A program made the position numbers and the translations under genes. A stretch of DNA of 64,000 bases from the NCBI GenBank assembly GCA_938018005.1, contig CALIJG010000020.1, forward strand, positions 81,063 to 145,062, given 5' to 3'. A model generated the notes under the pieces. It saw nothing but the letters and a program-made list of their open reading frames with translations. It was not told the DNA's origin and did not search any database. The DNA comes from an uncultured Candidatus Saccharibacteria bacterium. Lineage in GTDB: Bacteria > Patescibacteriota > Saccharimonadia > Saccharimonadales > Saccharimonadaceae. Of this stretch, positions 2,454 to 47,383 are shown one piece after another (positions within the stretch are counted from its first letter, which is position 1; each line of letters begins with the position of its first letter).

Positions 2454-4529
2454 ATGGGGGTGCAACAAATCAGCCGGTTTTGGCACCGGCGCTTGTGCGA
2501 GGCAAGTATGCTCTATGCCGTCATCATCGTGGCGCTGTGGGCATGGCGGCACTTTGGCGGGGTGGATCAATACAACCTCGTGCTTGGCATGCCACTCATT
2601 GCCGTCATCTTGGCCGGTATAACAGGGGTCGTGGCAGCGGTGCTTCACATCTGGCCACCGCAGCAGCGGCTTGGGCAGGCGAGCCTCGTGGTGTATCTCT
2701 GCGCCGTGGCCACAACGGGCGCGCTCATCGTTGGCACTGGCGGGCTGAGCTCACCCTTTATTGCAGCCTGGCTCTTGGTGGCAGTCTTTGCAATGTTTTT
2801 TGGCTGGGTGGGGCTAGCGCTCGTCTTGCTACTGGTCAATGCCTACCTCAGTTGGGGAGTATTGTCGGGGCATATTACAAGCATGATGATCCCCAGCGCT
2901 ATGCTGACGGGCGAGCTGCCCATCTTGGTAGGGTGCTTGCTCTGGGGGCCGGATGATCGCGCTGCCGAGGCCCGCACTACCTCATACCGCGAGCTTGCCG
3001 CCACACTAAGCCGGGTAGCAGGCAAGTCGGATATCGTGCTCAATGCGATTGGCGATGGCGTGATGGCACTGGACGCAGATGGGATGATAGAGCTCATCAA
3101 TCCAGCAGCTCAGCGCCTCGTGGGTTGGGGTGACGAAGATGCTCTGGGCCTCAGCTACCAATCCGTCCTCAAGCTTATCGACGCCAAGAATGACCCCATT
3201 ACTAATGATACCGACCCCATCGCCACCGTCCTGGCGGACAACCAGCCCCTCACCACCGACCGCCTGCGTCTCGTGACGAGCTCTGGCAAGACGCCGATCA
3301 TCTCGCTCGTTATTTCGCCTGTGAGCAGCGAGCCGGGCAGTGGGGTTATCGTCGTCTTTCGTGATGTGACAAAGGAAAAGGCCGAGGAACGCCAAAAAGC
3401 CGAGTTCATTAGCACAGCCAGCCACGAGATGCGTACCCCTGTGGCATCAATCGAGGGCTACCTTGGCCTCACCCTTAACCCCGCCACTGCCACTATCGAC
3501 AAGCGCGCCCGCGACTTCATTACCAAAGCCCACCGTTCGGCCGAGCACCTCGGCCGGCTCTTTCAAGACCTGCTGGACGTGAGCAAAGCCGATGATGGCC
3601 GCTTGCAGAGCAACCCCGAGGCGATCGATCTCATCCCCTTTGTCAGTGACATTGTGGAGGGGCTACGCCACAAGGCTGAGGACAAACAGCTCCAGCTTAT
3701 CTTCAAGCCACGCCCTGGCACAACTAGTACCGATCACAGCGCTACCTTTACCAGCCGGACGCTCAGCCCTGCCTTTTATGTCTATGTTGATCCAGACCAG
3801 CTGCGCGAGGTGCTCGATAATCTGGTGGAGAATGCCATCAAATACACCCCCAGCGGGCGTGTAACGGTGGATGTGACTGGTGGTAGTGGGCGCGTGACGA
3901 TCGCCATTGCCGATACTGGCATTGGCATACCAGTAGAAGATCAGTCACACCTCTTCCAAAAGTTCTATCGAGTAGATAATTCGGACACGCGTGAGATTGG
4001 CGGCACTGGCCTGGGGCTCTACCTCAGTCGCCGCCTTACAGAGGTGATGGGTGGCCGCTTGTGGGTGGAGAGTGCGTACCGGCAGGGAAGTACTTTCTTC
4101 CTTGAGCTCCCGCGCTTGAGCGAGCACGATGCTCAAACCGCCCTCGCTGCCAAAGCCAAGGCAGCAGCACAAGCCGCCAAGGCAGCTCCGCCTCGCCCAG
4201 TGCCAACTTTTGCCACGGCCGCACTCCAGAGCCAAGGCTTTTTGCCACAGCCCAGCCCAGCTGCTCGTGCCCAGCGCCCAGCACAAAAAAATAGCCACTC
4301 AGCCACCCCACCCAAGCCAAAAGATACCCAGTCTACCACTGTTGCCATCGCTCATCCTGCTCCTTCCACTCCCCCCAGCGCCACACCTTCCTCCACAGCA
4401 CAACCTACGCCAAGCACGTCGCCCACGGCGCATATCATTGCCACTAGTCAGCCTCGGCGTAGCCCCACTCGTGTCCGCGATGTCCTCACCACGCCGCGCT
4501 CTGCTGCGCCACCACGGGCGGTGCGGTAA
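2454..4529 (+). CDS. sensor histidine kinase (multi-TM N-terminus, PAS, HisKA, HATPase_c) with ~140-aa Pro/Ala/Thr-rich C-terminal tail
   Basis: RBS AAGGGGGA precedes the ATG. PAS-like segment: IVLNAIGDGVMALDADGMIELINPAAQRLVGW. H-box: FISTASHEMRTPV. N-box: LDNLVENAIKYTP. G-boxes: IADTGIGIP and GGTGLGLYLSRRL. Confidence 0.85.
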   Translation: MGVQQISRFWHRRLCEASMLYAVIIVALWAWRHFGGVDQYNLVLGMPLIAVILAGITGVVAAVLHIWPPQQRLGQASLVVYLCAVATTGALIVGTGGLSSPFIAAWLLVAVFAMFFGWVGLALVLLLVNAYLSWGVLSGHITSMMIPSAMLTGELPILVGCLLWGPDDRAAEARTTSYRELAATLSRVAGKSDIVLNAIGDGVMALDADGMIELINPAAQRLVGWGDEDALGLSYQSVLKLIDAKNDPITNDTDPIATVLADNQPLTTDRLRLVTSSGKTPIISLVISPVSSEPGSGVIVVFRDVTKEKAEERQKAEFISTASHEMRTPVASIEGYLGLTLNPATATIDKRARDFITKAHRSAEHLGRLFQDLLDVSKADDGRLQSNPEAIDLIPFVSDIVEGLRHKAEDKQLQLIFKPRPGTTSTDHSATFTSRTLSPAFYVYVDPDQLREVLDNLVENAIKYTPSGRVTVDVTGGSGRVTIAIADTGIGIPVEDQSHLFQKFYRVDNSDTREIGGTGLGLYLSRRLTEVMGGRLWVESAYRQGSTFFLELPRLSEHDAQTALAAKAKAAAQAAKAAPPRPVPTFATAALQSQGFLPQPSPAARAQRPAQKNSHSATPPKPKDTQSTTVAIAHPAPSTPPSATPSSTAQPTPSTSPTAHIIATSQPRRSPTRVRDVLTTPRSAAPPRAVR

Positions 4530-5445: not shown

Positions 5446-7010
5446 TGACAAAGGTTAAGATTCTGCTTGTCGAAGACGACAAAAGCCTGCGCGAAATATA
5501 CGGAGTACGCCTGTTGGCCGAGGGGTATGACATCGTGTCGGCCGGCGATGGGGAAGAAGCACTCGCCATGGCTATCAAAGAACGTCCGCAGCTCATCATC
5601 AGTGATGTGATGATGCCTAAGATTAGTGGCTTCGACATGCTCGATATCTTGCGCAGCACCACCGAGACGCGCGGCATCAAGGTGATTATCATGACGGCAC
5701 TCTCGAGCCAAGACCAGCGCATGCGCGGCGAGGCACTGGGAGCAGATCGCTACCTCGTCAAATCGCAGGTTGGCATTGAAGATGTGGTGCGCGCCGTACA
5801 CGACGTCCTTGGCGATACAGGGGTAAGTCACCAGCCGGCAGCACAGACCACTCCTGAGCCTCAGCCAAGTGCACCAACCATACCAGTTCCATCGGCCGCT
5901 CAGCCCGCCACACTGCCACAGCCCACAGCGCCATTCTCCACGCCGCGACCAGCCAGCCTGGGCGAGCGAGTGATCCATCCACTACAGTCTTCTATGCCGA
6001 GGCCAGATTATGCCAGCCTGATAGATGACGAACTCGATGCCGCCAATGGTACTTCACAGCCCACAGCGCCGCAGCCGCCAGCCGAGCCCACCACGCCACA
6101 GCCATTCACCTTGCCGCCAGCCGAAGAGGCACCAGAGGCCGAGATCGTCACACATCACGATGAACACCCAGCCTCTACTAATAGCGCACCAAGCCCAGCA
6201 GAAGCTCCACATCTGCACACACCGCCAGCCAGCGATGCTCCCGCTACGCAGCCACCCATTAACGATATTATTGCGCCGCATAGCACAGCGCCATCAGGTA
6301 TTCCAGATGTGCACCACCACATTGTGGCGAGTCAGCCTGCTCACTACACCCACACTCCAGCCGACGACGAAGCCGAGCTAGCCGAAGCTCTGCGCATGAG
6401 CACGCAGCAAACCGATGACGAGACAGACACTGGTGAAGCCGCCTACCAGCCAAGCCAAAACCAGCTCGTATCAGACGCCGTGGCCAACCTTAATGAGCAG
6501 ATGGACACCATTCCGACTCCGACTCCGGTCGAACCACCAGTACCAACCGCCACAGCATACGACGCACCAGCGCCAAGCCACACTGCGCCAGTCGCCTCAG
6601 CTCAACCGCCAGCTGCTCACCACGAGCATCACGAGGATTCACCAGCTCATCCTGCTGCTGATAATGCAGCCATTACACCGCACAGCACACAAGCCATTGC
6701 TGCAGACCCGTCTGATGCACTAGCCGCGGCGTTGCTCCAGGGTAGTGCAGCCGCTCATCCGTCGGTCTCGCCAGTCGATCATCCACTCTACGATGCCATC
6801 CGTCCAGCTCCCGTTGCTGCAGCGCATTCTGCTCCAGCACAGCCCGTCAACGCCGTAGCAGGGCAACCATCAGTCACTCATCATGCAGTATCAGTGCCTC
6901 AGCCAGGAGCCGCACCTTCGCGCCCAGCACCAGCCATACAGCACAGCCACGACAACCTCAGTTTCGAAGAGACTGAGCGGGCAACACCATCATCGGCCGG
7001 GTCGCACTAA
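5446..7010 (+). CDS. response-regulator receiver (CheY-like) domain protein with ~400-aa Pro/Ala/Thr/His-rich low-complexity C-terminal extension
   Basis: MTKVKILLVEDDKSLREIYG...ISDVMMPKISGFDMLDIL...IIMTALS...YLVKS gives the phospho-acceptor Asp, the conserved T and the K of a receiver domain. AGAGGG lies 5 nt upstream of ATG 5446; an alternative in-frame start is at 5424. No recognisable output domain. Confidence 0.75.
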
Positions 7011-7405
7011 AAAGCGTATCCATATCGCTTCACACGTGCTATACTAGGTAATCATCATGCATGGAGCCTGTTATGCCCGATCGATCACCATTCGACTACC
7101 CATTCCATGAACAACCTACCGATGACCCTGTCACTGGCCCTGCTACGCGATGCAATGATCCACTACAAGCCGATAGCCGCCAGCATCCATCGCTTGAGTA
7201 CCCACTGGTTGTGCCAGAAGTCAAACATAGCCCACTTTTCACATGCATTCGTGCCATTGGCAAGGCTGCTCTCCGCGGCACGCGGAGCATTGTTTCAGCG
7301 GTTACTCGGCCGTGGTCGCGTCATACCCATCAGCATTAAGCCGAGCGAGTTATGAGCGCAGAGCCGAGCCTTCGGCCAGCACGTCCTGGGTGATATAATA
7401 GGGGC

Positions 7406-8089
7406 ATGTCGACTACTCGCCTTAACAAACACATTGCTCTTGTGCTGGGCCTGTCGCGCCGCCAAGCGGATGACCTGATCGCCGCTGGAGATGTCGTAGT
7501 TGATGGCGAGGTAGCTGTGCTCGGTGCCCGCCTCCAGCCAGGCAGCTTGGCAACGGTACAGGGCGCGCCACTACCCGAGCAGGTTACTTACCACACTATT
7601 ATGCTCAACAAGCCAGTGGGCTACGTTTGCTCGCGCAAACAACAGGGGTCGCAGCCCACTATTTATAGCCTTTTACCAACAGAGTTGCACGCTCTTAAGC
7701 CCGTTGGCCGGCTCGATGCTGATAGCTCAGGCCTGCTTTTGCTCAGCAACAACGGCGACTTTGCCTACCGCATGACCCACCCACAGTTTGCGAAAGTCAA
7801 AGAATACCACGTCCGGCTCGACCACCCACTCGAACCCCTCCACCAGCAGATGATCAGCGACTACGGCATACAGCTTGCCGATGGTACCAGCCGGCTCATC
7901 CTCACGCGTCTTCGACCCGATAGTCGCACCGAGTGGCACATTAGCATGAGTGAGGGCCGCAACCGCCAGATCCGCCGCACCTTTGCCGCCCTAGGCTACA
8001 CCGTCACGCGCCTGCATCGCACACACTTTGGCAGCTATAGCCTGGGCAAACTACCGCGAGGTGAGTGGCAAGACGTCGCTGCGCAATAG
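7406..8089 (+). CDS. rRNA pseudouridine synthase, RsuA/RluB family
   Basis: N-terminal S4-like domain (TRLNKHIALVLGLSRRQADDLIAAGDVVVDG) plus catalytic motif GRLDADSSGLLLLSNNGDF. Confidence 0.85.
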   Translation: MSTTRLNKHIALVLGLSRRQADDLIAAGDVVVDGEVAVLGARLQPGSLATVQGAPLPEQVTYHTIMLNKPVGYVCSRKQQGSQPTIYSLLPTELHALKPVGRLDADSSGLLLLSNNGDFAYRMTHPQFAKVKEYHVRLDHPLEPLHQQMISDYGIQLADGTSRLILTRLRPDSRTEWHISMSEGRNRQIRRTFAALGYTVTRLHRTHFGSYSLGKLPRGEWQDVAAQ

Positions 8090-39852: not shown

Positions 39853-41397
39853 TTATTCCTCCCGATTATTATGACTACGTGAACGACTGCGTGATGCGAC
39901 TGCTGGTCGGCGTGGCGGTGTAATCACCCCGCTAGAGCGTGCCGCTGACCCTGGTGTAGATGGTGGCATTTGGGGTGTTTGGGGTGGCGTTGGCGGCGTC
40001 GGTTTGGGTGGTACTGCTGGCGTAGAGCGCGCAGAGCGCGGCGATGATGATGTAGCTTGCGCCTGCGCGGTAGCTGGCTTAGCACTCGGCTTCTTGCGCG
40101 CTGGTACAGACGGCAGTGGCTCGATAGGCCGCTCTGCCTGTTTCTTCTGCTGCTGCAATACGCGAGCAAACCATAGCGCACTGGGGCGCGGTGTCCGCTT
40201 GTACGTCTTGTAGTCGACCGCAAAGAGGCCAAAGCGCGGCCAAAACCCTTTATCCCACTCGAAGTTATCAAGGAAGCTCCAGTGCATATATCCCAGCAGC
40301 TCTACCCCACTACCAAGAGCGCGCTGCATAGCCAGGATAGACTGAGTGAGCCATTGCTTGCGGAACTGGTCGCGCTCGTCAGCCACACCGTTCTCTGTCA
40401 CGAGCAGCGGTAGCTTATAGCGGCCCCAGAGACGCCCTAGTGCAAGCTCGAGATGATCGGGCTGCATTGTCCAGCCGAGATCGTTTGGCGTGGTCTCGGG
40501 GTTGTGGATGCGGTAGCCATAGATACGATTGCTAAAGTAATAATTGACGGCGATGTAATCACTCTGCCGCACCACCTTGCGCAGGAAATAATCATCCTGG
40601 AAGAACTGCACCACCCGCGCTGTCGCTCGGCTCAGCCAGGCGTCATCACCCGGGTAGGTGTAGGCCGAGTTTTTGGCCACCGCCACCTTGAAGCGCCGGC
40701 TCTTGGCGTGGAGGACCTTAGCCACTTGGTTGTGTGCATAGGCAAGATTGCTCAGCACGCGGTAGGTTTGCCACTTGCTGCGGACGTTGGGTGGCCAGGT
40801 GCCATTGTAGTAGCTCTCGGTCACGTAGACGCAGGGCTCATTGACGGTAATGACATAGCGCACCGTTGCACCAATCTCATCCATCAGTTTATCGACAAAG
40901 CGCACAAAATACTTCACATTATCGCGCTTCGCAAAGCCCCCCTGGGCAGCAAACCATACCGGCAGCGTGAAGTGAAACAGTGTCACGACTGGCTCCAGCC
41001 CAGCATCGGCCAGCGCGGCCAAGTATGCCTTGTAGTATTTGATCGCCTCGGCATTCCACGCGCCCTCTTCTGGCTCGATGCGCGACCACTCCACACTAAA
41101 GCGCCACGAGGTGAGGCCCATCTTCTTGGCCAGGGCGAAGTCTTGTGCGTAAAGCTCGGCGTGGTTGGCAGCTTTGCCCGAGATATAATTGTTTGGATCT
41201 TTGGCGGCACTGGCAATGTGCGGCCAGTTGGGCAAGTCGCCATATTGATATTGGCTCTGAGCAGCGAGGGTCTTGGCCTGAGCTTTTTCCCACTCCGACC
41301 ACTGGTTGTGCATACCACCCTCGACCTGATGCGCGCTCGTCGCAGCGCCCCAGAGGAAATGTTTTGGAAATTGCACCGTAGATTGTTGCTTAGCCAT
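39853..41397 (-). CDS. glycoside hydrolase family 1 beta-glucosidase with ~100-aa Pro/Ala/Ser-rich C-terminal tail
   Basis: GH1 N-terminal signature FLWGAATSAHQVEGG and nucleophile motif LLVTENGVAD. Confidence 0.85.
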   Translation of the reverse strand: MAKQQSTVQFPKHFLWGAATSAHQVEGGMHNQWSEWEKAQAKTLAAQSQYQYGDLPNWPHIASAAKDPNNYISGKAANHAELYAQDFALAKKMGLTSWRFSVEWSRIEPEEGAWNAEAIKYYKAYLAALADAGLEPVVTLFHFTLPVWFAAQGGFAKRDNVKYFVRFVDKLMDEIGATVRYVITVNEPCVYVTESYYNGTWPPNVRSKWQTYRVLSNLAYAHNQVAKVLHAKSRRFKVAVAKNSAYTYPGDDAWLSRATARVVQFFQDDYFLRKVVRQSDYIAVNYYFSNRIYGYRIHNPETTPNDLGWTMQPDHLELALGRLWGRYKLPLLVTENGVADERDQFRKQWLTQSILAMQRALGSGVELLGYMHWSFLDNFEWDKGFWPRFGLFAVDYKTYKRTPRPSALWFARVLQQQKKQAERPIEPLPSVPARKKPSAKPATAQAQATSSSPRSARSTPAVPPKPTPPTPPQTPQMPPSTPGSAARSSGVITPPRRPAVASRSRSRSHNNREE

Positions 41398-41507
41398 AAT
41401 GCTTATTGTACCATCAGTAGAGGATTAAGAAAAATAGAATTATTGGGTGGAAGTATGATCTCTCTTTGTTTGCGCTCGCTCCACCTTCCCATCACTTCAT
41501 CCGATGG

Positions 41508-41590
41508 AGTGTGGAAACAGATTGCAATAATCTGTTTGCAGCCCAGCGCAAGAGGTCGACATCCAGCGAATGTCGACCCTTATCTCCAGA
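41508..41590 (-). repeat. copy 2 (inverted) of the ~75-bp two-hairpin repeat element
   Basis: The reverse complement reads ATAAGGGTCGACATtcgctggATGTCGACCTCTTGCGCTGGGCTGcaaacagattATTGCAAtctgtttcc. Hairpin-A stems differ from copy 1 by a compensatory pair. Hairpin-B stems are entirely different but still palindromic around a conserved ATTGC loop. Confidence 0.6.
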
Positions 41591-41643
41591 TATTTTCTTG
41601 TCCAATAGCATGATACTAGCTAGACACAGAAAATATCTCTTCC

Positions 41644-42759
41644 CTACTCCGGCAGTTGCTCATTCTCGCGCAGGATTTTCTTGCCGCGCATTTCGTATTT
41701 GACACCGGTCAGGTCGCTCGTGACGTAGTCATCGTTGAGGAGATTAACAAAAACGGCTGCATCCTTGGCATCCATGATAATGATACTCCCTGCCGCGTCG
41801 TCCGTCATCAGGCCCAGGCCCATTTCATCAGCGTGGTCAATGAGTTGGTCTTGTGTCACTTGGGCAGGATCGAGCTTTTGCAGTTTAGTCACCAGCGCTG
41901 GTGTGTCGCGCACCAGGCGGTCGAGCGTGAGTCCCTCAGGCAAGGTAAGTTTGAACTGCTGAGTGATGGCAGCGATCTTTTCCTCTGCCACAGCATGCTT
42001 TTTGGCATCGTAGCCAAAAAGCCGGACAAATTTGCTCTCGCTAAAGGCAAAGATATCGTTGCCGACGATTAATACTTGATTATCCGGCGTGATGCGCAGA
42101 CCAGCATCAGCCACAAATGGCTGGAATGACCCACCGCTGTACATCCAGGCGGTTGCTCCCTTGAGCACCTGCGACTGGGGCAGCAGCTTGGCCACAAAGA
42201 ATGGCTCGCCATCTGTGCCCATCCGGAAGCGCGCAATGATACCCTTAACCTTCTTAAACTCATGGTCACCCTCGTTGAAGGTCTCAAGATCTGCCTCGCT
42301 GTAAGTGATCTGCTCGATGACTTCTTGAGCGTGCACTACCCGGTCGAGTGTGGTGCGCTCGAGAACATTCTCCTCAGCCTTGGCCGCCTCAAAGTCGCGC
42401 ACCATCAGGCCAGTCGCTGCACCCGTCTGCACCGCTGTGATCATATCGTAGAGGAAGAGCACCTTGAGCTGCGCCTTGAGCTCAGCTGCATAGTTGGTGG
42501 CATACACTGTATAGCCCTTGGTGAAGAGAAAGAGATCCACCTCTAACTGGTCTTTGTCGCGATCGGCTTGATTGGCCCAGAGGAAGATGTCGGTAGCATC
42601 GGTAGATGTGCCAGCCGTAGACTGTGCGGTAGTATCTGTTGGCTGAGCCTCGGCATAAGCAGCTACATCTGCGTCACTCTGCGGCACAGCAGCTGACTCT
42701 GGTGACGTTACTGGGGTGATATCGGTGGTGGGGGTTTGTGTGTTTGGTTCGTTATGCAT
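41644..42759 (-). CDS. hypothetical protein, third gene of the AAA+ operon (N-terminal Thr/Ala-rich region plus ~300-aa globular part)
   Basis: 371-aa ORF lying 54 nt after the preceding gene. No confidently recognisable domain; mixed alpha/beta composition. Confidence 0.5.
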   Translation of the reverse strand: MHNEPNTQTPTTDITPVTSPESAAVPQSDADVAAYAEAQPTDTTAQSTAGTSTDATDIFLWANQADRDKDQLEVDLFLFTKGYTVYATNYAAELKAQLKVLFLYDMITAVQTGAATGLMVRDFEAAKAEENVLERTTLDRVVHAQEVIEQITYSEADLETFNEGDHEFKKVKGIIARFRMGTDGEPFFVAKLLPQSQVLKGATAWMYSGGSFQPFVADAGLRITPDNQVLIVGNDIFAFSESKFVRLFGYDAKKHAVAEEKIAAITQQFKLTLPEGLTLDRLVRDTPALVTKLQKLDPAQVTQDQLIDHADEMGLGLMTDDAAGSIIIMDAKDAAVFVNLLNDDYVTSDLTGVKYEMRGKKILRENEQLPE

Positions 42760-42813
42760 GGTTTCTAGTGTACTATATTTAGGGTGTAAAGCCTATTGCT
42801 ACATCCAGTAGTG

Positions 42814-43713
42814 TTACCGCTCGTCGCTTGCTGGCCCATGCCCCAGCGTCTCCAGTGTGCGGTCAACCACCTTTTGGGCAAAGCGCTGCACATCACTATC
42901 ACTGTGTAGGTCGAGCCCCTCACCTTGGTCGATGAGAAAGCTGTGTGGCGGGAGATCTGAAACCATGCAGATTGGCCAACCATAGCTTCGCCCCCTCATA
43001 AACCCCATAGCGTGGCGTATGTTATTTGGCTCATGTTCCTTGAGGGCAAATACCCCGCGGCGCAAGAATGCTGGGTGTGCCAAGCAAAATGCCGCTGTGT
43101 CGATATCCAGATATTCCCCGGGCTGCACCACTGGTATCTGATATTCGACGCCACGGATATATCTATCATCTTCTTCTGTAGACTCAACCATCGTGAGGCC
43201 AAGCGAGTACCCCTCAGTACGCAATGCCTCGATCGCCGCATACAGTGCCCCACCACGCTGCATAATTCGCTCGGACGAAACTCTGCTAGACATCGATGCA
43301 TTAACATACATCATTGCCTGCTTCCCATGAGTATCCTGGCGCACTTGATAATCTACCATATGCTCGGGCTCACCGTGTAGGTAAGCGCCAATATCTACCT
43401 CATCACCAGCGAAATCTAGCCGAGACTCTACAATTGGTCGCCGCCCCACTAGCTGATCTATAGCCACACGTCCCACTACTTGGCGCAAGCGCTGGCGGCC
43501 CTCTTCCCAGCCATAGCGCGCTAACTCGAGCGCCTCATCCATCGTCCTTGTGCCCGACCACCGCTCCTCATCTGTCCTCAGGCTCGCTGCTCCGAGGTCA
43601 GACTGCTCTTGCTGCTCGGGCGCATGCTGCATCGCATCAATCATTTCGCCAATGCTATCGAGCTGACGAAAGTGCATCGTACGACCGTCATACTCTTGCT
43701 CAGAGCGACGCAT
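42814..43713 (-). CDS. hypothetical protein, second gene of the AAA+ operon (possible degenerate vWA-like fold)
   Basis: Start is immediately adjacent to the ATPase stop, suggesting translational coupling. The segment MMYVNASMSS...GGALYAAIEALRTEGYSLGLTMV weakly resembles the vWA beta1-MIDAS/alpha1/beta2 region. This is inference only. Confidence 0.5.
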   Translation of the reverse strand: MRRSEQEYDGRTMHFRQLDSIGEMIDAMQHAPEQQEQSDLGAASLRTDEERWSGTRTMDEALELARYGWEEGRQRLRQVVGRVAIDQLVGRRPIVESRLDFAGDEVDIGAYLHGEPEHMVDYQVRQDTHGKQAMMYVNASMSSRVSSERIMQRGGALYAAIEALRTEGYSLGLTMVESTEEDDRYIRGVEYQIPVVQPGEYLDIDTAAFCLAHPAFLRRGVFALKEHEPNNIRHAMGFMRGRSYGWPICMVSDLPPHSFLIDQGEGLDLHSDSDVQRFAQKVVDRTLETLGHGPASDER

Positions 43714-45393
43714 CTAGTGACTCCTCGGCCGCTTACCACCCACGTCGGGGTGCTGCCTCAGCCAATTACACAGGGTAAATCGCCCAGGAACAAAACCGTG
43801 GCAGGCTTCAAATTGCTTGGCGTAATCCTGGACGTCATGGTCGTTCAATTGCGAAAAGTGGTCTTTCACAAACTCTATTCGGTCATGTACTTCCGTCTTG
43901 ATGTGGTCATTATCATTATCCTCTGTTTCCCATTGTGTGATGTCCCCACGGTCGCGCTGCCAACGCCGATCCTCTACATTGACTGCAGCAACTATATCTG
44001 AGACAAGGACCTTTTTTGTCGTCCAAATTTCGGGGTCTCCAAAGACCCGCCCTACTGCCCTGGATATTGTTGGCGTTTGCGATATGTCCGTTAGCTCACG
44101 CGAATGCATCGATTCCAAGTCCCAACACACTCGGACAAATATACTAGTCTCGTAGTTGCTCGTGTCTAATTTATTGATATTATAACAGTCTGGTAAGAAA
44201 CGACGTATAGAACTATCAAGAGATCTCTCAAGCCATCGTGTATTCGTTCTATCGATAGTAATTTCTTTATCCTCCGGTGGTGTAAACCACTCACTATCGT
44301 CTTTCTTTTCAGTATCTTTTGGCTGAGTTTCTTGAGATGACTTACTGTGAGATTCATCAAGCTCTTTGCCTTTCGTAGCTTCGCGAGTCTTGTAGTCAAG
44401 CGCCTCCTGCACCCTCGGCATCAACCGCTTGGCATTCTCAGCTAGCTTCTCGCGGTCATGCTCCTTCATACCCTTATAGAGGAGCATCTCGCCCAGCCAG
44501 TCCTTACCGACGCCTAACTCAGCTAGGCGTACACCATACAGGCTAGCACGCTGGCTAATGATAGCGCGGATACCAAGCTCGCCCAGTGCCTGGCGGTGCG
44601 CTCGCACCGTAGCCAGCCACTCTTTGGGGCTAGGTACCTCACCAGCCGAGATGTCGAGTGGCGAGCGGTTTATCTCCGTGCCAAGTATCAGCGCGTCCTC
44701 CAAATATTCATCAGTGTCCATTGGGATGAAGGCAAAGCGGTCGATGGTGGCTGCATCGATCGGTGCCCGGCCCACATACTCACTCGTTGCTCCGCGGCCA
44801 ATCGTGTTGGCACTGGCGATGAAGCGCGCCGTCTCGTGGCGTGGCACTCTGCTATCCGGGAACTCACCATGGCCATTGGCAAGCGCACTGTTGAGGATAG
44901 TCAAAATACTTGCGCTACCATTATCGATCTCATCAAACATAAAGACACCACCATTCTCATACACCTCACGGTAGGCTGTGTTATGGTAGTTACCCGTTGC
45001 ATCGCGATAGCCCATAAGGTCGGACTTGGATGTCGTTGGCCCGAGCGATATAGAGCGAAATGGCAAGCCAAGGCTATCTGCCGCTTGCTCACCAGCAGTC
45101 GACTTGCCACTCCCTGCCTCACCATGCAGCCAGATAGGTACATCTGCCTGCAAGGCTGCGCGCACGAGGGGCGTGTGGTAATGCGACGGTTTGGCTCTGT
45201 TAACAAACTGCTGCAATGCAGGGTATTCCTGCTGCCGTGTTGTATGATCCAGCGCGAGGATCGTCCGCAGTGCGTTCACAACCTCCTCGCTCGTCCCTTG
45301 GTGTAGTTGCTCCACAACCTGGCGCGCTTCGCTCAAGTCTGCAGCCACCCCCCGGTGTGCTGCTTCGATATCGTGCAGCGTTTTGCCGCTCAT
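43714..45393 (-). CDS. MoxR-like (AAA_5-type) AAA+ ATPase with long acidic C-terminal extension
   Basis: Walker A LHGEAGSGKST, Walker B VFMFDEID, sensor-1 FIASANT, Arg near IDRFAF. A C-terminal ~250 aa is acidic and of unknown function. The annotated ATG 45393 has no SD, whereas the RBS-equipped ATG 45502 is out of frame. See the SSR feature. Confidence 0.7.
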   Translation of the reverse strand: MSGKTLHDIEAAHRGVAADLSEARQVVEQLHQGTSEEVVNALRTILALDHTTRQQEYPALQQFVNRAKPSHYHTPLVRAALQADVPIWLHGEAGSGKSTAGEQAADSLGLPFRSISLGPTTSKSDLMGYRDATGNYHNTAYREVYENGGVFMFDEIDNGSASILTILNSALANGHGEFPDSRVPRHETARFIASANTIGRGATSEYVGRAPIDAATIDRFAFIPMDTDEYLEDALILGTEINRSPLDISAGEVPSPKEWLATVRAHRQALGELGIRAIISQRASLYGVRLAELGVGKDWLGEMLLYKGMKEHDREKLAENAKRLMPRVQEALDYKTREATKGKELDESHSKSSQETQPKDTEKKDDSEWFTPPEDKEITIDRTNTRWLERSLDSSIRRFLPDCYNINKLDTSNYETSIFVRVCWDLESMHSRELTDISQTPTISRAVGRVFGDPEIWTTKKVLVSDIVAAVNVEDRRWQRDRGDITQWETEDNDNDHIKTEVHDRIEFVKDHFSQLNDHDVQDYAKQFEACHGFVPGRFTLCNWLRQHPDVGGKRPRSH

Positions 45394-45454
45394 CAGGTTA
45401 CTCAGCGACTGGAGCGAAATCTCACCACTCCCTGCAGTATCTGCAGTGGCTTGC

Positions 45455-45502
45455 TCAGCGCTGCCTGTTAAGGCTCTCTCTCTCTCTCTCTGAATTTGCC
45501 AT
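45455..45502 (-). other. 15-codon uORF (MANSERERESLNRQR*) starting at an RBS-equipped ATG and running through the (GA)8 tract
   Basis: RBS AAGGAG lies 5 nt before ATG 45502. The frame terminates at TGA with 8 GA units. With 9 units the frame continues into the AAA+ ORF. Confidence 0.5.
45475..45490. repeat. (TC)8/(GA)8 dinucleotide SSR between promoter/RBS/ATG and the AAA+ ATPase ORF (candidate phase-variation switch)
   Basis: tctctctctctctctc. The repeat count sets the reading frame between ATG 45502 and the ATPase ORF; they are currently out of frame by one nucleotide. Confidence 0.8.
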
Positions 45503-45530
45503 ATTTTCTCCTTATTGTCTAGATTACTTT

Positions 45531-45560
45531 ATTGTAAGAGATATAGAGGAGATTTGTCAA
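45531..45560 (-). promoter_or_regulatory. sigma70-like promoter TTGACA-N18-TACAAT driving the AAA+ operon
   Basis: Minus-strand sense reads TTGACAAATCTCCTCTATATCTCTTACAAT, about 25-30 bp upstream of the RBS/ATG. Confidence 0.5.
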
Positions 45561-45599
45561 TTAGTAAACTATGGGAACTACTGAGAGGTTTGCAACGCT

Positions 45600-45638
45600 A
45601 GTATAAAAAATGAACGTATTATAAGAACATTCATTTTT
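45600..45638 (-). terminator. intrinsic terminator after the helicase gene (possibly bidirectional)
   Basis: AAAAATGAA-cgtattataagaaca-TTCATTTTT hairpin whose 3' half runs into a U-tract on the minus strand. Lies 58 bp after the helicase stop. Confidence 0.5.
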
Positions 45639-45695
45639 GTTTACTATAATCATTGAGAAGCATGAAACGACCCCAGACTTTGGGATAGCAATGCG

Positions 45696-47221
45696 CTACT
45701 GCACTGCATCCTCGCCAAAATGCTTTTGCAGTCGCATTTTTATCGAGCCTTCGTGCCGGCCGAGGGTGCGGCTGAGCTGGTGGATACTTACGCCTTGGAC
45801 GAAGGCCTGCTTGAGCGTCTCATCGTCGACTTTTGTCCATGGTTTGTAGGCGTTGGGGTGGGTCTGGCGCATTGTGGCAATCTTGGCCGCCCAGCTAGTG
45901 CTACCAGTTTTACTCGTCGGCTTCTTCTGCGGCATCGCAGCACGCTGAGCAGCCTGTTCGCGCAGATGTGCAAAGCGCTCGGCATCTTGGGCGGCACGAG
46001 TGCGCAGCTGCGTGTCAATGATATACGCTTCATCGCTCATGGTAAGTGCCATCCGATTGATACCAGTGAGATATATATTATCTAGACTTTTGACGCGGCT
46101 CAGTGCTACATAGCCCATACCCGGAACAAAGGCTTTGCGTAGGTCGATGCGTGCGCTATCGAGCGTCATCCCCTGACTCTTGTGCACAGTAATCGCCCAA
46201 GCCAGGCGCAGTGGCAGCTGCGAGATACTGGCCCGCTTGCGCGTACCATCGCGCAGCTCCCAGGTATCGGGCTGCATTGTCACCACATGGCCATTACGAA
46301 ACTCCACCACAGGATAGTCTGTGCCTGGCTCGAAGTCTGCTACCAGGCCAATACTCCCATTGGCAAAGCGCCGTGCTTGGTCGTTCTTGATGGCCATCAC
46401 CAGTGCACTCCGCTTGAGCACTAGCACTTCTGGTGCAAGAATGCTCCGCTGGAGCGTGTCAACATAATTTTGCCCACCAGTGCTGCTGCGCTGGTACAAC
46501 ACTTCATCGCCAGGCAGCTCAGCGAGGCGGGCTTGGTTGATCCGATCGACGTCGATATTGACGGTGTGGAGCTCAGTCAGGTCGCTCTCGTGAGGTGGCT
46601 CTACCTCTGTGCGAGCTAGTAATTGCTCGGCGTGGCGTCGGCGCAGATCACCAGCTCGCATGGCAGTCAGGATATCGAGCAGAGCGTCGCCCTCTTGCTG
46701 GCGGTATTGCTGGTCGAGGTAGAGGATGGCTGGGTCGAGCTCACGCCAGGCTTGCGACTGCACTACAAAGCTCCCCTGCCGCCCACCATTGCGATTAATT
46801 GGCGGTAGCTGAAAGAAATCCCCACTCATCACTACCTGCAATCCGCCAAAAGGCTGATTCGGCATCTCGCGCACGCGGCGGCACACTTCGTCGATCATAT
46901 CCAGACGGTAGTCGTGCAGCATACTAATCTCATCGATGATGAGTACATCTGTTTTGGCAATGATATCGCGCCGCGTCTTCGACAGGTGATCAAAAAAATT
47001 GTTCGGCAAGCTATCGTGGATGCCAATCCCCGCCCATGCGTGAATCGTGCTGCCGCCCAGGTGCGTCGCCGCAAGCCCCGTCGTGGCGGTGACGGACACA
47101 TACTTGCCGTCCGCCTTGCACTGGCGGATGAACTGCCCCAGCACATGCGTCTTGCCCGTGCCCGCCGGGCCTGTCAGCAGCGCACTCTGGCCACTGCGCA
47201 AAATCTCCTGTGCAAGTGTCT
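45696..47221 (-). CDS. SF1 PIF1/RecD-like ATP-dependent DNA helicase with C-terminal HTH-like tail
   Basis: Walker A LLTGPAGTGKTHVL, Walker B VLIIDEISML, SF1 C-terminal domain motif VHKSQGMTLD, and a C-terminal ~90 aa basic helix-rich tail. Start at MDQTLAQ; the longer ORF reaches 47309. Confidence 0.8.
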
Positions 47222-47383
47222 GATCCATAGGTTCTAGTATACAAGGTTGTGGGGTGAGAGGCAAAGTATGCGTATACCCTCTATAGAGGCAGCTCTTAGA
47301 GAGGCGCAACGAAGTGAAAGTAGAAAAAATAGTATAAAATGTATATGCTCACATTCTACCAGTGAGAGCTCAGCCTCGCCACT

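Follow-up and report, generated by a model that had tools for sequence, protein, structure and literature searches.

A stretch of 64,000 nucleotides (nt) of contig CALIJG010000020.1, from an uncultured Candidatus Saccharibacteria bacterium of the human mouth, was analysed (hereafter "the window"). Three consecutive open reading frames (ORFs) of 559, 299 and 371 amino acids (aa) lie on its minus strand, at the coordinates given in an earlier reading of this DNA (the original prediction), which had considered them a three-gene conflict operon. They encode an AAA+ ATPase of the MoxR class, a protein of the DUF7192 family with a predicted von Willebrand factor A (vWA)-like fold, and a KwaB-like protein (Table 1). 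The locus is probably composite: a phase-variable, phage-type module of two genes (ATPase and DUF7192) beside an independent, conserved KwaB-like gene. Metagenomic contigs 0.2-1.0 Mb long, of oral and other origin, carried the same locus, and the DUF7192 protein of the window was 100% identical to a protein of the metagenome-assembled genome CAURIH010000001.1.

The stop codon of the ATPase gene (TAG) immediately adjoined the ATG of the 299-aa ORF, as originally described, with GAGGAG 7 nt upstream. A gap of 54 nt separated the DUF7192 and KwaB-like genes. Scanning of positions 41300-45800 showed no coding-strand terminator-like site between the three ORFs and a single strong promoter-like site, TTGACA-N18-TACAAT, which matched 11 of the 12 consensus positions and did not vary among nine related strains, not even in those with a diverged upstream sequence. 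This site had been proposed as the promoter of all three genes; the site itself was corroborated, its common role was not, since the KwaB-like gene appears to have its own upstream element (see below).

Table 1. Features of the locus (positions are those of the window; aa, amino acids of the respective ORF).
Feature	Position	Strand	Basis
KwaB-like (DUF4868) gene, 371 aa	41644-42759	(-)	Pfam, PADLOC, NCBIfam
TAGTACACT motif, about 8-10 nt 5' of the KwaB-like start codon	42767-42775	(-)	conservation across Saccharibacteria
DUF7192 protein, 299 aa, putative short divergent vWA-like partner of the ATPase	42814-43713	(-)	
Predicted vWA-like part of DUF7192	roughly aa 130-290, 42844-43326	(-)	MIDAS (metal ion-dependent adhesion site) position N138-A-S-M-S142
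AAA+ ATPase ORF as read in the window, 559 aa	43714-45393	(-)	
ATPase C-terminal domain	aa 336-559, 43717-44388	(-)	
CobS-like MoxR-class ATPase core	aa 36-327, about 44413-45288	(-)	Pfam, phrog_249
(AG)9 dinucleotide repeat in the 5' coding region	45474-45491	(-)	TRF, 9.0 copies, 100% match
Probable native ATPase start codon ATG	45502-45500	(-)	sequence reading, homologue frames
AAGGAG ribosome-binding site	45513-45508	(-)	sequence reading
Sigma-70-type promoter-like site TTGACA-N18-TACAAT, 5' of the ATPase gene	45531-45560	(-)	consensus scan

The native ATPase probably differs from the 559-aa ORF: the conserved frame runs upstream to an ATG at 45502 preceded by AAGGAG. The peptide SLQSLSNL, encoded 5' of the annotated ATG, aligned with the N-termini of two homologues (P0225 and P0226), and the annotated, internal ATG had no ribosome-binding site. 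The dinucleotide repeat already noted in the original prediction lies just downstream of the upstream ATG, and its length was compared in 22 loci (strains and congeneric species, consensus assemblies). Six AG units were found in 2 loci, seven in 8, eight in 9, nine in 3 and ten in 1. Only seven or ten units placed the upstream ATG in frame with the rest of the gene (9 of the 22 loci), opening ORFs of 594-597 aa with (AG)7 and 596 aa with (AG)10; with six, eight or nine units the ATG was out of frame and a stop codon followed after 10-15 codons. Since the (AG)9 of the window puts the ATG at 45502 out of frame, the window would represent an off state, with at best low ATPase expression from the internal ATG.

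Tract, promoter and ribosome-binding site were kept across species-level divergence, as expected for a maintained contingency locus. The tract resembles the simple sequence repeat (SSR) contingency loci of host-associated bacteria in being a dinucleotide repeat within the 5' coding region, in varying in length between strains and in setting the reading frame. In literature searches, limited in reach, neither a phase-variable MoxR-vWA pair nor SSR phase variation of a Saccharibacteria gene came up. As an SSR-switched unit, the pair would provide one of the early examples of contingency loci in reduced-genome epibionts of the candidate phyla radiation (CPR).

The ATPase and its DUF7192 partner

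The ATPase matched the AAA_5 family of Pfam (4e-12, 46.6 bits, cutoff 22) and, over aa 36-327, the phage family phrog_249, labelled "CobS/porphyrin biosynthesis" (1e-45). The Walker A (GEAGSGKS) and Walker B (FMFDEID) motifs were intact in its translation, and the closest solved relative was the cobaltochelatase subunit CobS (9ujv, 8e-9). The MoxR-class assignment of the original prediction was upheld, and so was the C-terminal extension (about 225 aa after the core, originally given as about 250 aa), unlike the length of 559 aa for the native product. A true cobaltochelatase CobS/CobT was considered and rejected: the ATPase does not qualify as a cobaltochelatase subunit because it scored 33 bits against TIGR01650, far under the equivalog cutoff of 558.55, and no CobN was found in the locus contexts. 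Saccharibacteria are not expected to possess a cobalamin pathway.

The C-terminal domain of the ATPase (aa 336-559) was mostly helical and lineage-specific, and closed with the conserved motif YAxQFExxHGFxPGxxTLxNWLxQHPxV. It was rare: among 1.84 billion representative proteins, searched exhaustively, just seven clusters were found, in which the domain was fused to the same type of ATPase or free-standing. The free-standing form corresponded to an extra ORF of about 297 aa between the DUF7192 and KwaB-like genes of five congeneric species (L027, positions 7074-7967; L028, L029, L031 and L035, approximately 7300-7950), which the window lacks. The C-terminal 200 aa of this ORF are a paralogue of the ATPase C-terminal domain (about 30% identity), and the ORF of L027 had no Pfam match. 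A tandem-repeat protein of 844 aa (P0224), also retrieved by the C-terminal-domain search, was discarded as a low-complexity artefact.

The 299-aa protein matched DUF7192 of Pfam (3e-40) and phrog_1909 (3e-39). Proteins of this family have 280-340 aa and are spanned end to end by the profile. No Pfam VWA or CobT model and no PADLOC model matched DUF7192, phmmer against the PDB sequences gave only noise, IMG/VR, scanned with a profile of the Saccharibacteria DUF7192 proteins, yielded no relative, and a full-text literature search on DUF7192 returned zero papers. Its fold was predicted with AlphaFold2; the input alignment comprised 34 diverse homologues, some of them phage-type sequences retrieved with a profile search, and the model obtained had a mean predicted local distance difference test of 81.7 and a predicted template modelling score of 0.80. 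The best structural matches of the model were the MIDAS domain of Midasin/Rea1 (scores of 6.7 for human MDN1 and 6.3 for Rea1) and the vWA domain of NorD from the NorQ-NorD complex (5.7), followed by BatB (5.4) and BchD (4.1); the list also contained the vWA domains of Ku70, TFIIH p44 and collagen. Against viral models, the first twelve Foldseek matches were phage DUF7192 proteins (E values of 1e-9 to 1e-15), and the next ones were annotated as "CobT", "VWFA" or "cobalamin biosynthesis" proteins (1e-3 to 1e-1).

The predicted model is compatible with the degenerate vWA/MIDAS-like fold suggested in the original prediction. The canonical metal-binding motif was not present: strand 132-138 was followed by N138-A-S-M-S142, that is, NxSxS in place of DxSxS. 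Nearly all Saccharibacteria homologues had Asn at this position; the sequence in phage homologues was NISYS or NSSIS, and the motif was missing from two homologues. On the basis of the model, DUF7192 may be regarded as the short, vWA-like counterpart that accompanies the phage "CobS" ATPase and that, to judge from these searches, was previously undescribed.

The two genes were adjacent or near-adjacent in at least five phage groups, among them Staphylococcus Kayvirus phage 812 (orf48/orf47), Listeria phage P100 (gp90/gp91), Mycobacterium phage DuncansLeg (gp133/gp131) and Rhizobium phage P106B (gp25/gp22), and were adjacent on two uncultured phage contigs. By host genus, phage records matched by the ATPase and those matched by DUF7192 were equally numerous for Staphylococcus (236 and 236), Gordonia (6 and 6) and Rhizobium (3 and 3), and nearly so for Mycobacterium (80 and 86). 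One DUF7192 homologue is labelled "probable phage protein" in a JGI record. Literature searches on the Kayvirus AAA ATPase gave nothing relevant. Viral cobST-like pairs are widespread in tailed viruses (PMC8651126); together with MoxR-vWA pairs they make up a known class in which the ATPase/DUF7192 pair can be placed (PMC8651126, PMC7824862). A prophage was rejected as an explanation of the locus, in which neither an integrase nor other phage genes were found and housekeeping genes lay on both sides.

In distant Saccharibacteria, the pair was located beside RNase J and FtsK, isoleucyl-tRNA synthetase (IleRS), or glycoside hydrolases of families 15 and 57 (GH15, GH57), with DUF7192 proteins of 44-63% identity, an ATPase of merely 369-482 aa and no KwaB-like gene nearby. 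Its distribution was patchy: DUF7192 formed 62 clusters at 90% identity, versus 2254 for the KwaB-like protein in the same type of search, and a scan of GTDB species representatives, with patterns that find close relatives only, gave at least 17 loci. In another Saccharibacteria lineage, sampled twice independently (L010, positions 6541-6543, and L011, positions 6556-6558), an in-frame TAA was present right after Walker A (GEAGSGKSTAA*QMADEL, the asterisk being the stop), and the ATPase gene there probably is a pseudogene or encodes a shortened protein. The homologous ATPase of phage 812 is also annotated as cut by a premature stop (L016, positions 2738-3857). These nonsense codons, together with the patchy distribution, suggest that the pair is dispensable.

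Substitution rates were compared between the window and ten congeneric species. Synonymous divergence (dS) was alike in all genes compared (0.18-0.36), indicating that they share one history. The ratio of nonsynonymous to synonymous divergence (dN/dS) was low for CofD (0.02), the glycoside hydrolase family 1 (GH1) gene (0.04), the PIF1-type helicase (0.05), the KwaB-like gene (0.05), MetK (0.09) and the ATPase core (0.09, dS 0.2), and reached 0.26 for DUF7192 and 0.45 for the C-terminal domain of the ATPase. The strong purifying selection on the ATPase motor indicates that the module is functional, while the fast change in the putative target-facing parts may reflect either diversifying or relaxed selection.

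The KwaB-like gene

The 371-aa protein, for which no recognisable domain had been reported, turned out to be a full-length KwaB/DUF4868 homologue. It matched KwaB of Pfam (PF16162, 43.1 bits, cutoff 26.3, 6e-11), KwaB of PADLOC (2e-12, aa 67-367 on profile positions 15-318 of 320) and KwaB of NCBIfam (1e-13, 51 bits, under the equivalog cutoff of 200); phmmer against the solved KwaB reached only E = 0.08. A word-indexed search found 2254 homologous clusters, and selected Saccharibacteria homologues (oral taxon 955 and the complete genome CP064995.1 included) were 74-83% identical over the core.

This gene belongs to a conserved backbone in the order RNase H ... PIF1 helicase - variable slot - KwaB-like - GH1 - CofD ... 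MraZ - RsmH - penicillin-binding protein. The backbone was found without the ATPase/DUF7192 pair in other genera (L017-L022, KwaB-like gene at approximately 7001-7999). The slot between the PIF1 and KwaB-like genes was empty in CP064995.1, contained an ABC ATPase and an FtsX permease in oral taxon 955-like contigs (followed, in one of the two, by a 440-aa ORF without Pfam match), a reverse-strand gene of 222-228 aa in other contigs, and the ATPase/DUF7192 pair in this genus. Whether or not the Saccharibacteria concerned had the pair, the TAGTACACT motif was invariant 5' of the KwaB-like gene, and the 40 nt 5' of the gene stayed conserved in the five congeneric species in which the extra ORF intervenes. 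Conservation of TAGTACACT whatever gene lies upstream suggests that the KwaB-like gene brings its own promoter or regulatory element. The grouping of the three genes into one unit was therefore not supported: the third is a conserved, syntenic gene of the lineage, with a dN/dS like that of its neighbours, an outcome which the original prediction had itself named as contrary to its proposal. Nor was the expected co-occurrence supported, as pair and third gene each occurred without the other.

Kiwa is a two-gene system in which a KwaA tetramer binds KwaB dimers (10.1101/2023.02.26.530102), and KwaB is its DNA binder. The locus shares with it the full-length KwaB homologue, and differs in that the gene behaves like part of a conserved syntenic backbone and unlike a mobile defence gene, and in that the four-transmembrane KwaA is not adjacent. 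No KwaA-like ORF was adjacent in the window or in six other contexts, and the intergenic regions contained no hidden ORF; this search covered the locus contexts and not the rest of the genome. The two-gene architecture of Kiwa was consequently not found, and Kiwa was discarded as an identification. Literature searches on Saccharibacteria and Kiwa gave nothing relevant. These data suggest a non-Kiwa role for the KwaB-like gene, perhaps in DNA replication or repair, and its presence as a Saccharibacteria backbone gene without KwaA means that a KwaB match alone should not be taken as Kiwa defence.

Possible function of the pair

In the interpretation we favour, positions 43714-45560 would constitute an accessory module, a CobS-like MoxR-class ATPase and a translationally coupled vWA-like adaptor (DUF7192), inserted in the variable chromosomal slot between the PIF1-type helicase and KwaB-like genes. 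The ATPase would, on the analogy of CobS-CobT, NorQ-NorD, RavA-ViaA and Rea1/Midasin, form a ring and use ATP to remodel, load or dismantle a client protein or nucleoprotein complex. DUF7192 would dock the client; further contacts with the target or a partner may come from the C-terminal domain of the ATPase and from its free paralogue. The full-length ATPase would be toggled on and off by (AG)n slippage right after the true start codon. Positions 41644-42775 would hold the backbone KwaB/DUF4868 homologue with its own upstream element, merely adjacent to the module in this genus.

The resemblance to viral cobST-like and CobS-CobT pairs is based on the phrog_249 match, on CobS as nearest solved structure and on the adjacent vWA-like partner gene; moreover, after the DUF7192 family itself, viral CobT/VWFA models came next in structural similarity to DUF7192. 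These CobT/VWFA proteins are, however, of 600-800 aa, whereas DUF7192 has about 300 aa and NxSxS at the MIDAS position; compared with CobS-CobT, CobN is not visible at the locus, and the ATPase has a novel C-terminal domain. NorQ-NorD, RavA-ViaA, CbbQ-CbbO and Rea1/Midasin also combine an AAA_5 ATPase with an adjacently encoded vWA-like partner, and ATP-driven remodelling of a vWA-docked client is likely common to them and to the pair, to the extent that the analogy holds. The pair differs from these chaperones in its degenerate MIDAS, its phage relatives, its phase-variable expression and its fast-evolving adaptor.

The vWA-MoxR ternary systems (Kaur et al. 2020, PMC7159879), to which the locus had been likened, share the MoxR and vWA core and the fast-evolving non-motor parts, and a core-fused domain which is also a separate adjacent ORF in some strains recalls their effector-associated domains. 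Their third component is of the VMAP, iSTAND, FtsH or beta-propeller type (PMC7159879). No VMAP-C, iSTAND, FtsH or beta-propeller domain was detected by Pfam in the three proteins or in the L027 ORF, no effector domain was fused to DUF7192, which its profile covers throughout, the adjacent third gene is unlinked, and the host is a reduced-genome epibiont, not a multicellular bacterium. As both the third component and the effector fusions are lacking, and the KwaB-like gene co-occurs with the pair in one genus only, a ternary system was rejected.

We favour a putative role of the pair in genetic or host-parasite conflict (phage exclusion, epibiont-host interaction) over housekeeping on account of its phase variation, its patchy distribution, its phage relatives and the fast evolution of its adaptor parts, traits which bear out the accessory, conflict-like character first proposed; this is the weakest step of the interpretation. 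Several observations weigh against it or against the composite reading of the locus. In other Saccharibacteria the pair is located among housekeeping genes, not in defence islands. No defence-database model ties it to defence (in PADLOC, nothing for DUF7192 and a lone, sub-threshold IetA match of 14 bits for the ATPase). The raised dN/dS could mean relaxed constraint on an often switched-off gene. The AG lengths come from consensus assemblies, and switching within populations was not directly observed. The absence of a terminator between the DUF7192 and KwaB-like genes would allow read-through co-transcription in this genus.

It is rather unlikely that the pair, with its lineage-specific C-terminal domain, is, more specifically, a novel phase-variable immune or exclusion system of phage origin in an ultrasmall epibiont, perhaps wired in this genus to the adjacent KwaB-like DNA binder in place of KwaA, with the viral pairs of Kayvirus, P100-like phages and mycobacteriophages acting in superinfection exclusion or anti-defence. 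A housekeeping chaperone pair, dedicated to cofactor maturation or insertion into a Saccharibacteria enzyme or envelope complex and with no part in conflict, is similarly unlikely. It would accommodate the likeness to NorQ-NorD, CbbQ-CbbO and RavA-ViaA, but no conserved neighbouring substrate gene was found across contexts, the relatives recovered outside Saccharibacteria were phage genes, and neither an ATPase that is phase-off in 13 of the 22 loci and interrupted by a nonsense mutation in another lineage, nor the limited distribution (62 clusters, at least 17 species loci), nor the fast evolution of adaptor and C-terminal domain would be anticipated for it.

We give slightly less credence to a single three-gene conflict operon, in which the ATPase and the vWA-like protein would regulate or deploy the KwaB-like protein, replacing KwaA. 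The three genes share a strand, the short gap between the second and third contains no terminator-like site, the arrangement was kept in all congeneric loci long enough to show the third gene, and KwaB as an antiphage effector needs an activating partner (10.1101/2023.02.26.530102), KwaA being absent here. This operon is nevertheless difficult to reconcile with a KwaB-like gene that holds its position and identity (74-83%) in genera without the pair, evolves like the housekeeping flanks and keeps its 5' region when another ORF intervenes, with pairs that lack the gene in other Saccharibacteria and in phages, and with the absence of any match to the KwaB-like protein in phage records (tblastn). 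A functionless, decaying remnant of a phage insertion, in which AG variation and high dN/dS would reflect lost constraint, is very improbable: the out-of-frame ATPase of the window, the in-frame stops of L010 and L011, the JGI label and the closeness to PHROG families are in its favour, but the ATPase core is under purifying selection across ten congeneric species, both ORFs are intact 3' of the tract in 22 of 22 loci, promoter, ribosome-binding site and tract are conserved, and the pair has neither flanking phage genes or integrase nor a close relative in IMG/VR.

What is new in the favoured, composite reading is a short vWA-like partner (DUF7192) of the phage-type MoxR/CobS-like ATPase, dinucleotide-gated in Saccharibacteria; the locus is a probable contingency locus and not a demonstrated defence system. 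Hundreds of phage genome records, among them those of therapeutic-type Staphylococcus Kayvirus and Listeria P100-like phages, encode DUF7192, and the misleading "porphyrin biosynthesis" label of its partner may be replaced by a testable hypothesis, that of a MoxR-vWA remodelling machine. The pair would also offer a handle on what Saccharibacteria fight with, whether phages or their bacterial hosts.

Flanking genes

Some features of the neighbouring genes were also recorded. The PIF1-type helicase (window 45696-47309) is listed with a TTG start (537 aa) which is probably too far upstream: it has 508-510 aa in the gene calls of relatives, and alignments with other genera start at about residue 23-28. 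Its C-terminal 120 aa, approximately, matched a D5-like transcriptional-regulator PHROG (phrog_323, 5e-6). An AT-rich hairpin with a T-run, aaaaatgaatgttcttataatacgttcatttttt, is located just after the helicase stop (window 45600-45695); it was absent from the consensus terminator scan and resembles the helicase terminator mentioned in the original prediction.

The product of the GH1 gene (window 39853-41397) ends in a Pro-, Ser-, Thr- and Ala-rich tail of about 95 aa, which is missing from the 418-aa orthologues of other genera, and the start of the gene was placed differently by gene callers among strains (483, 486 or 514 aa). An intact 301-aa regulator of the helix-turn-helix (HTH)-WYL type (YafY/PafC-like) was found near the glyoxalase gene in one strain (L006, positions 1196-2101), where the other strains (L001-L005) had none, in agreement with the decayed YafY-like regulator originally noted in the window.

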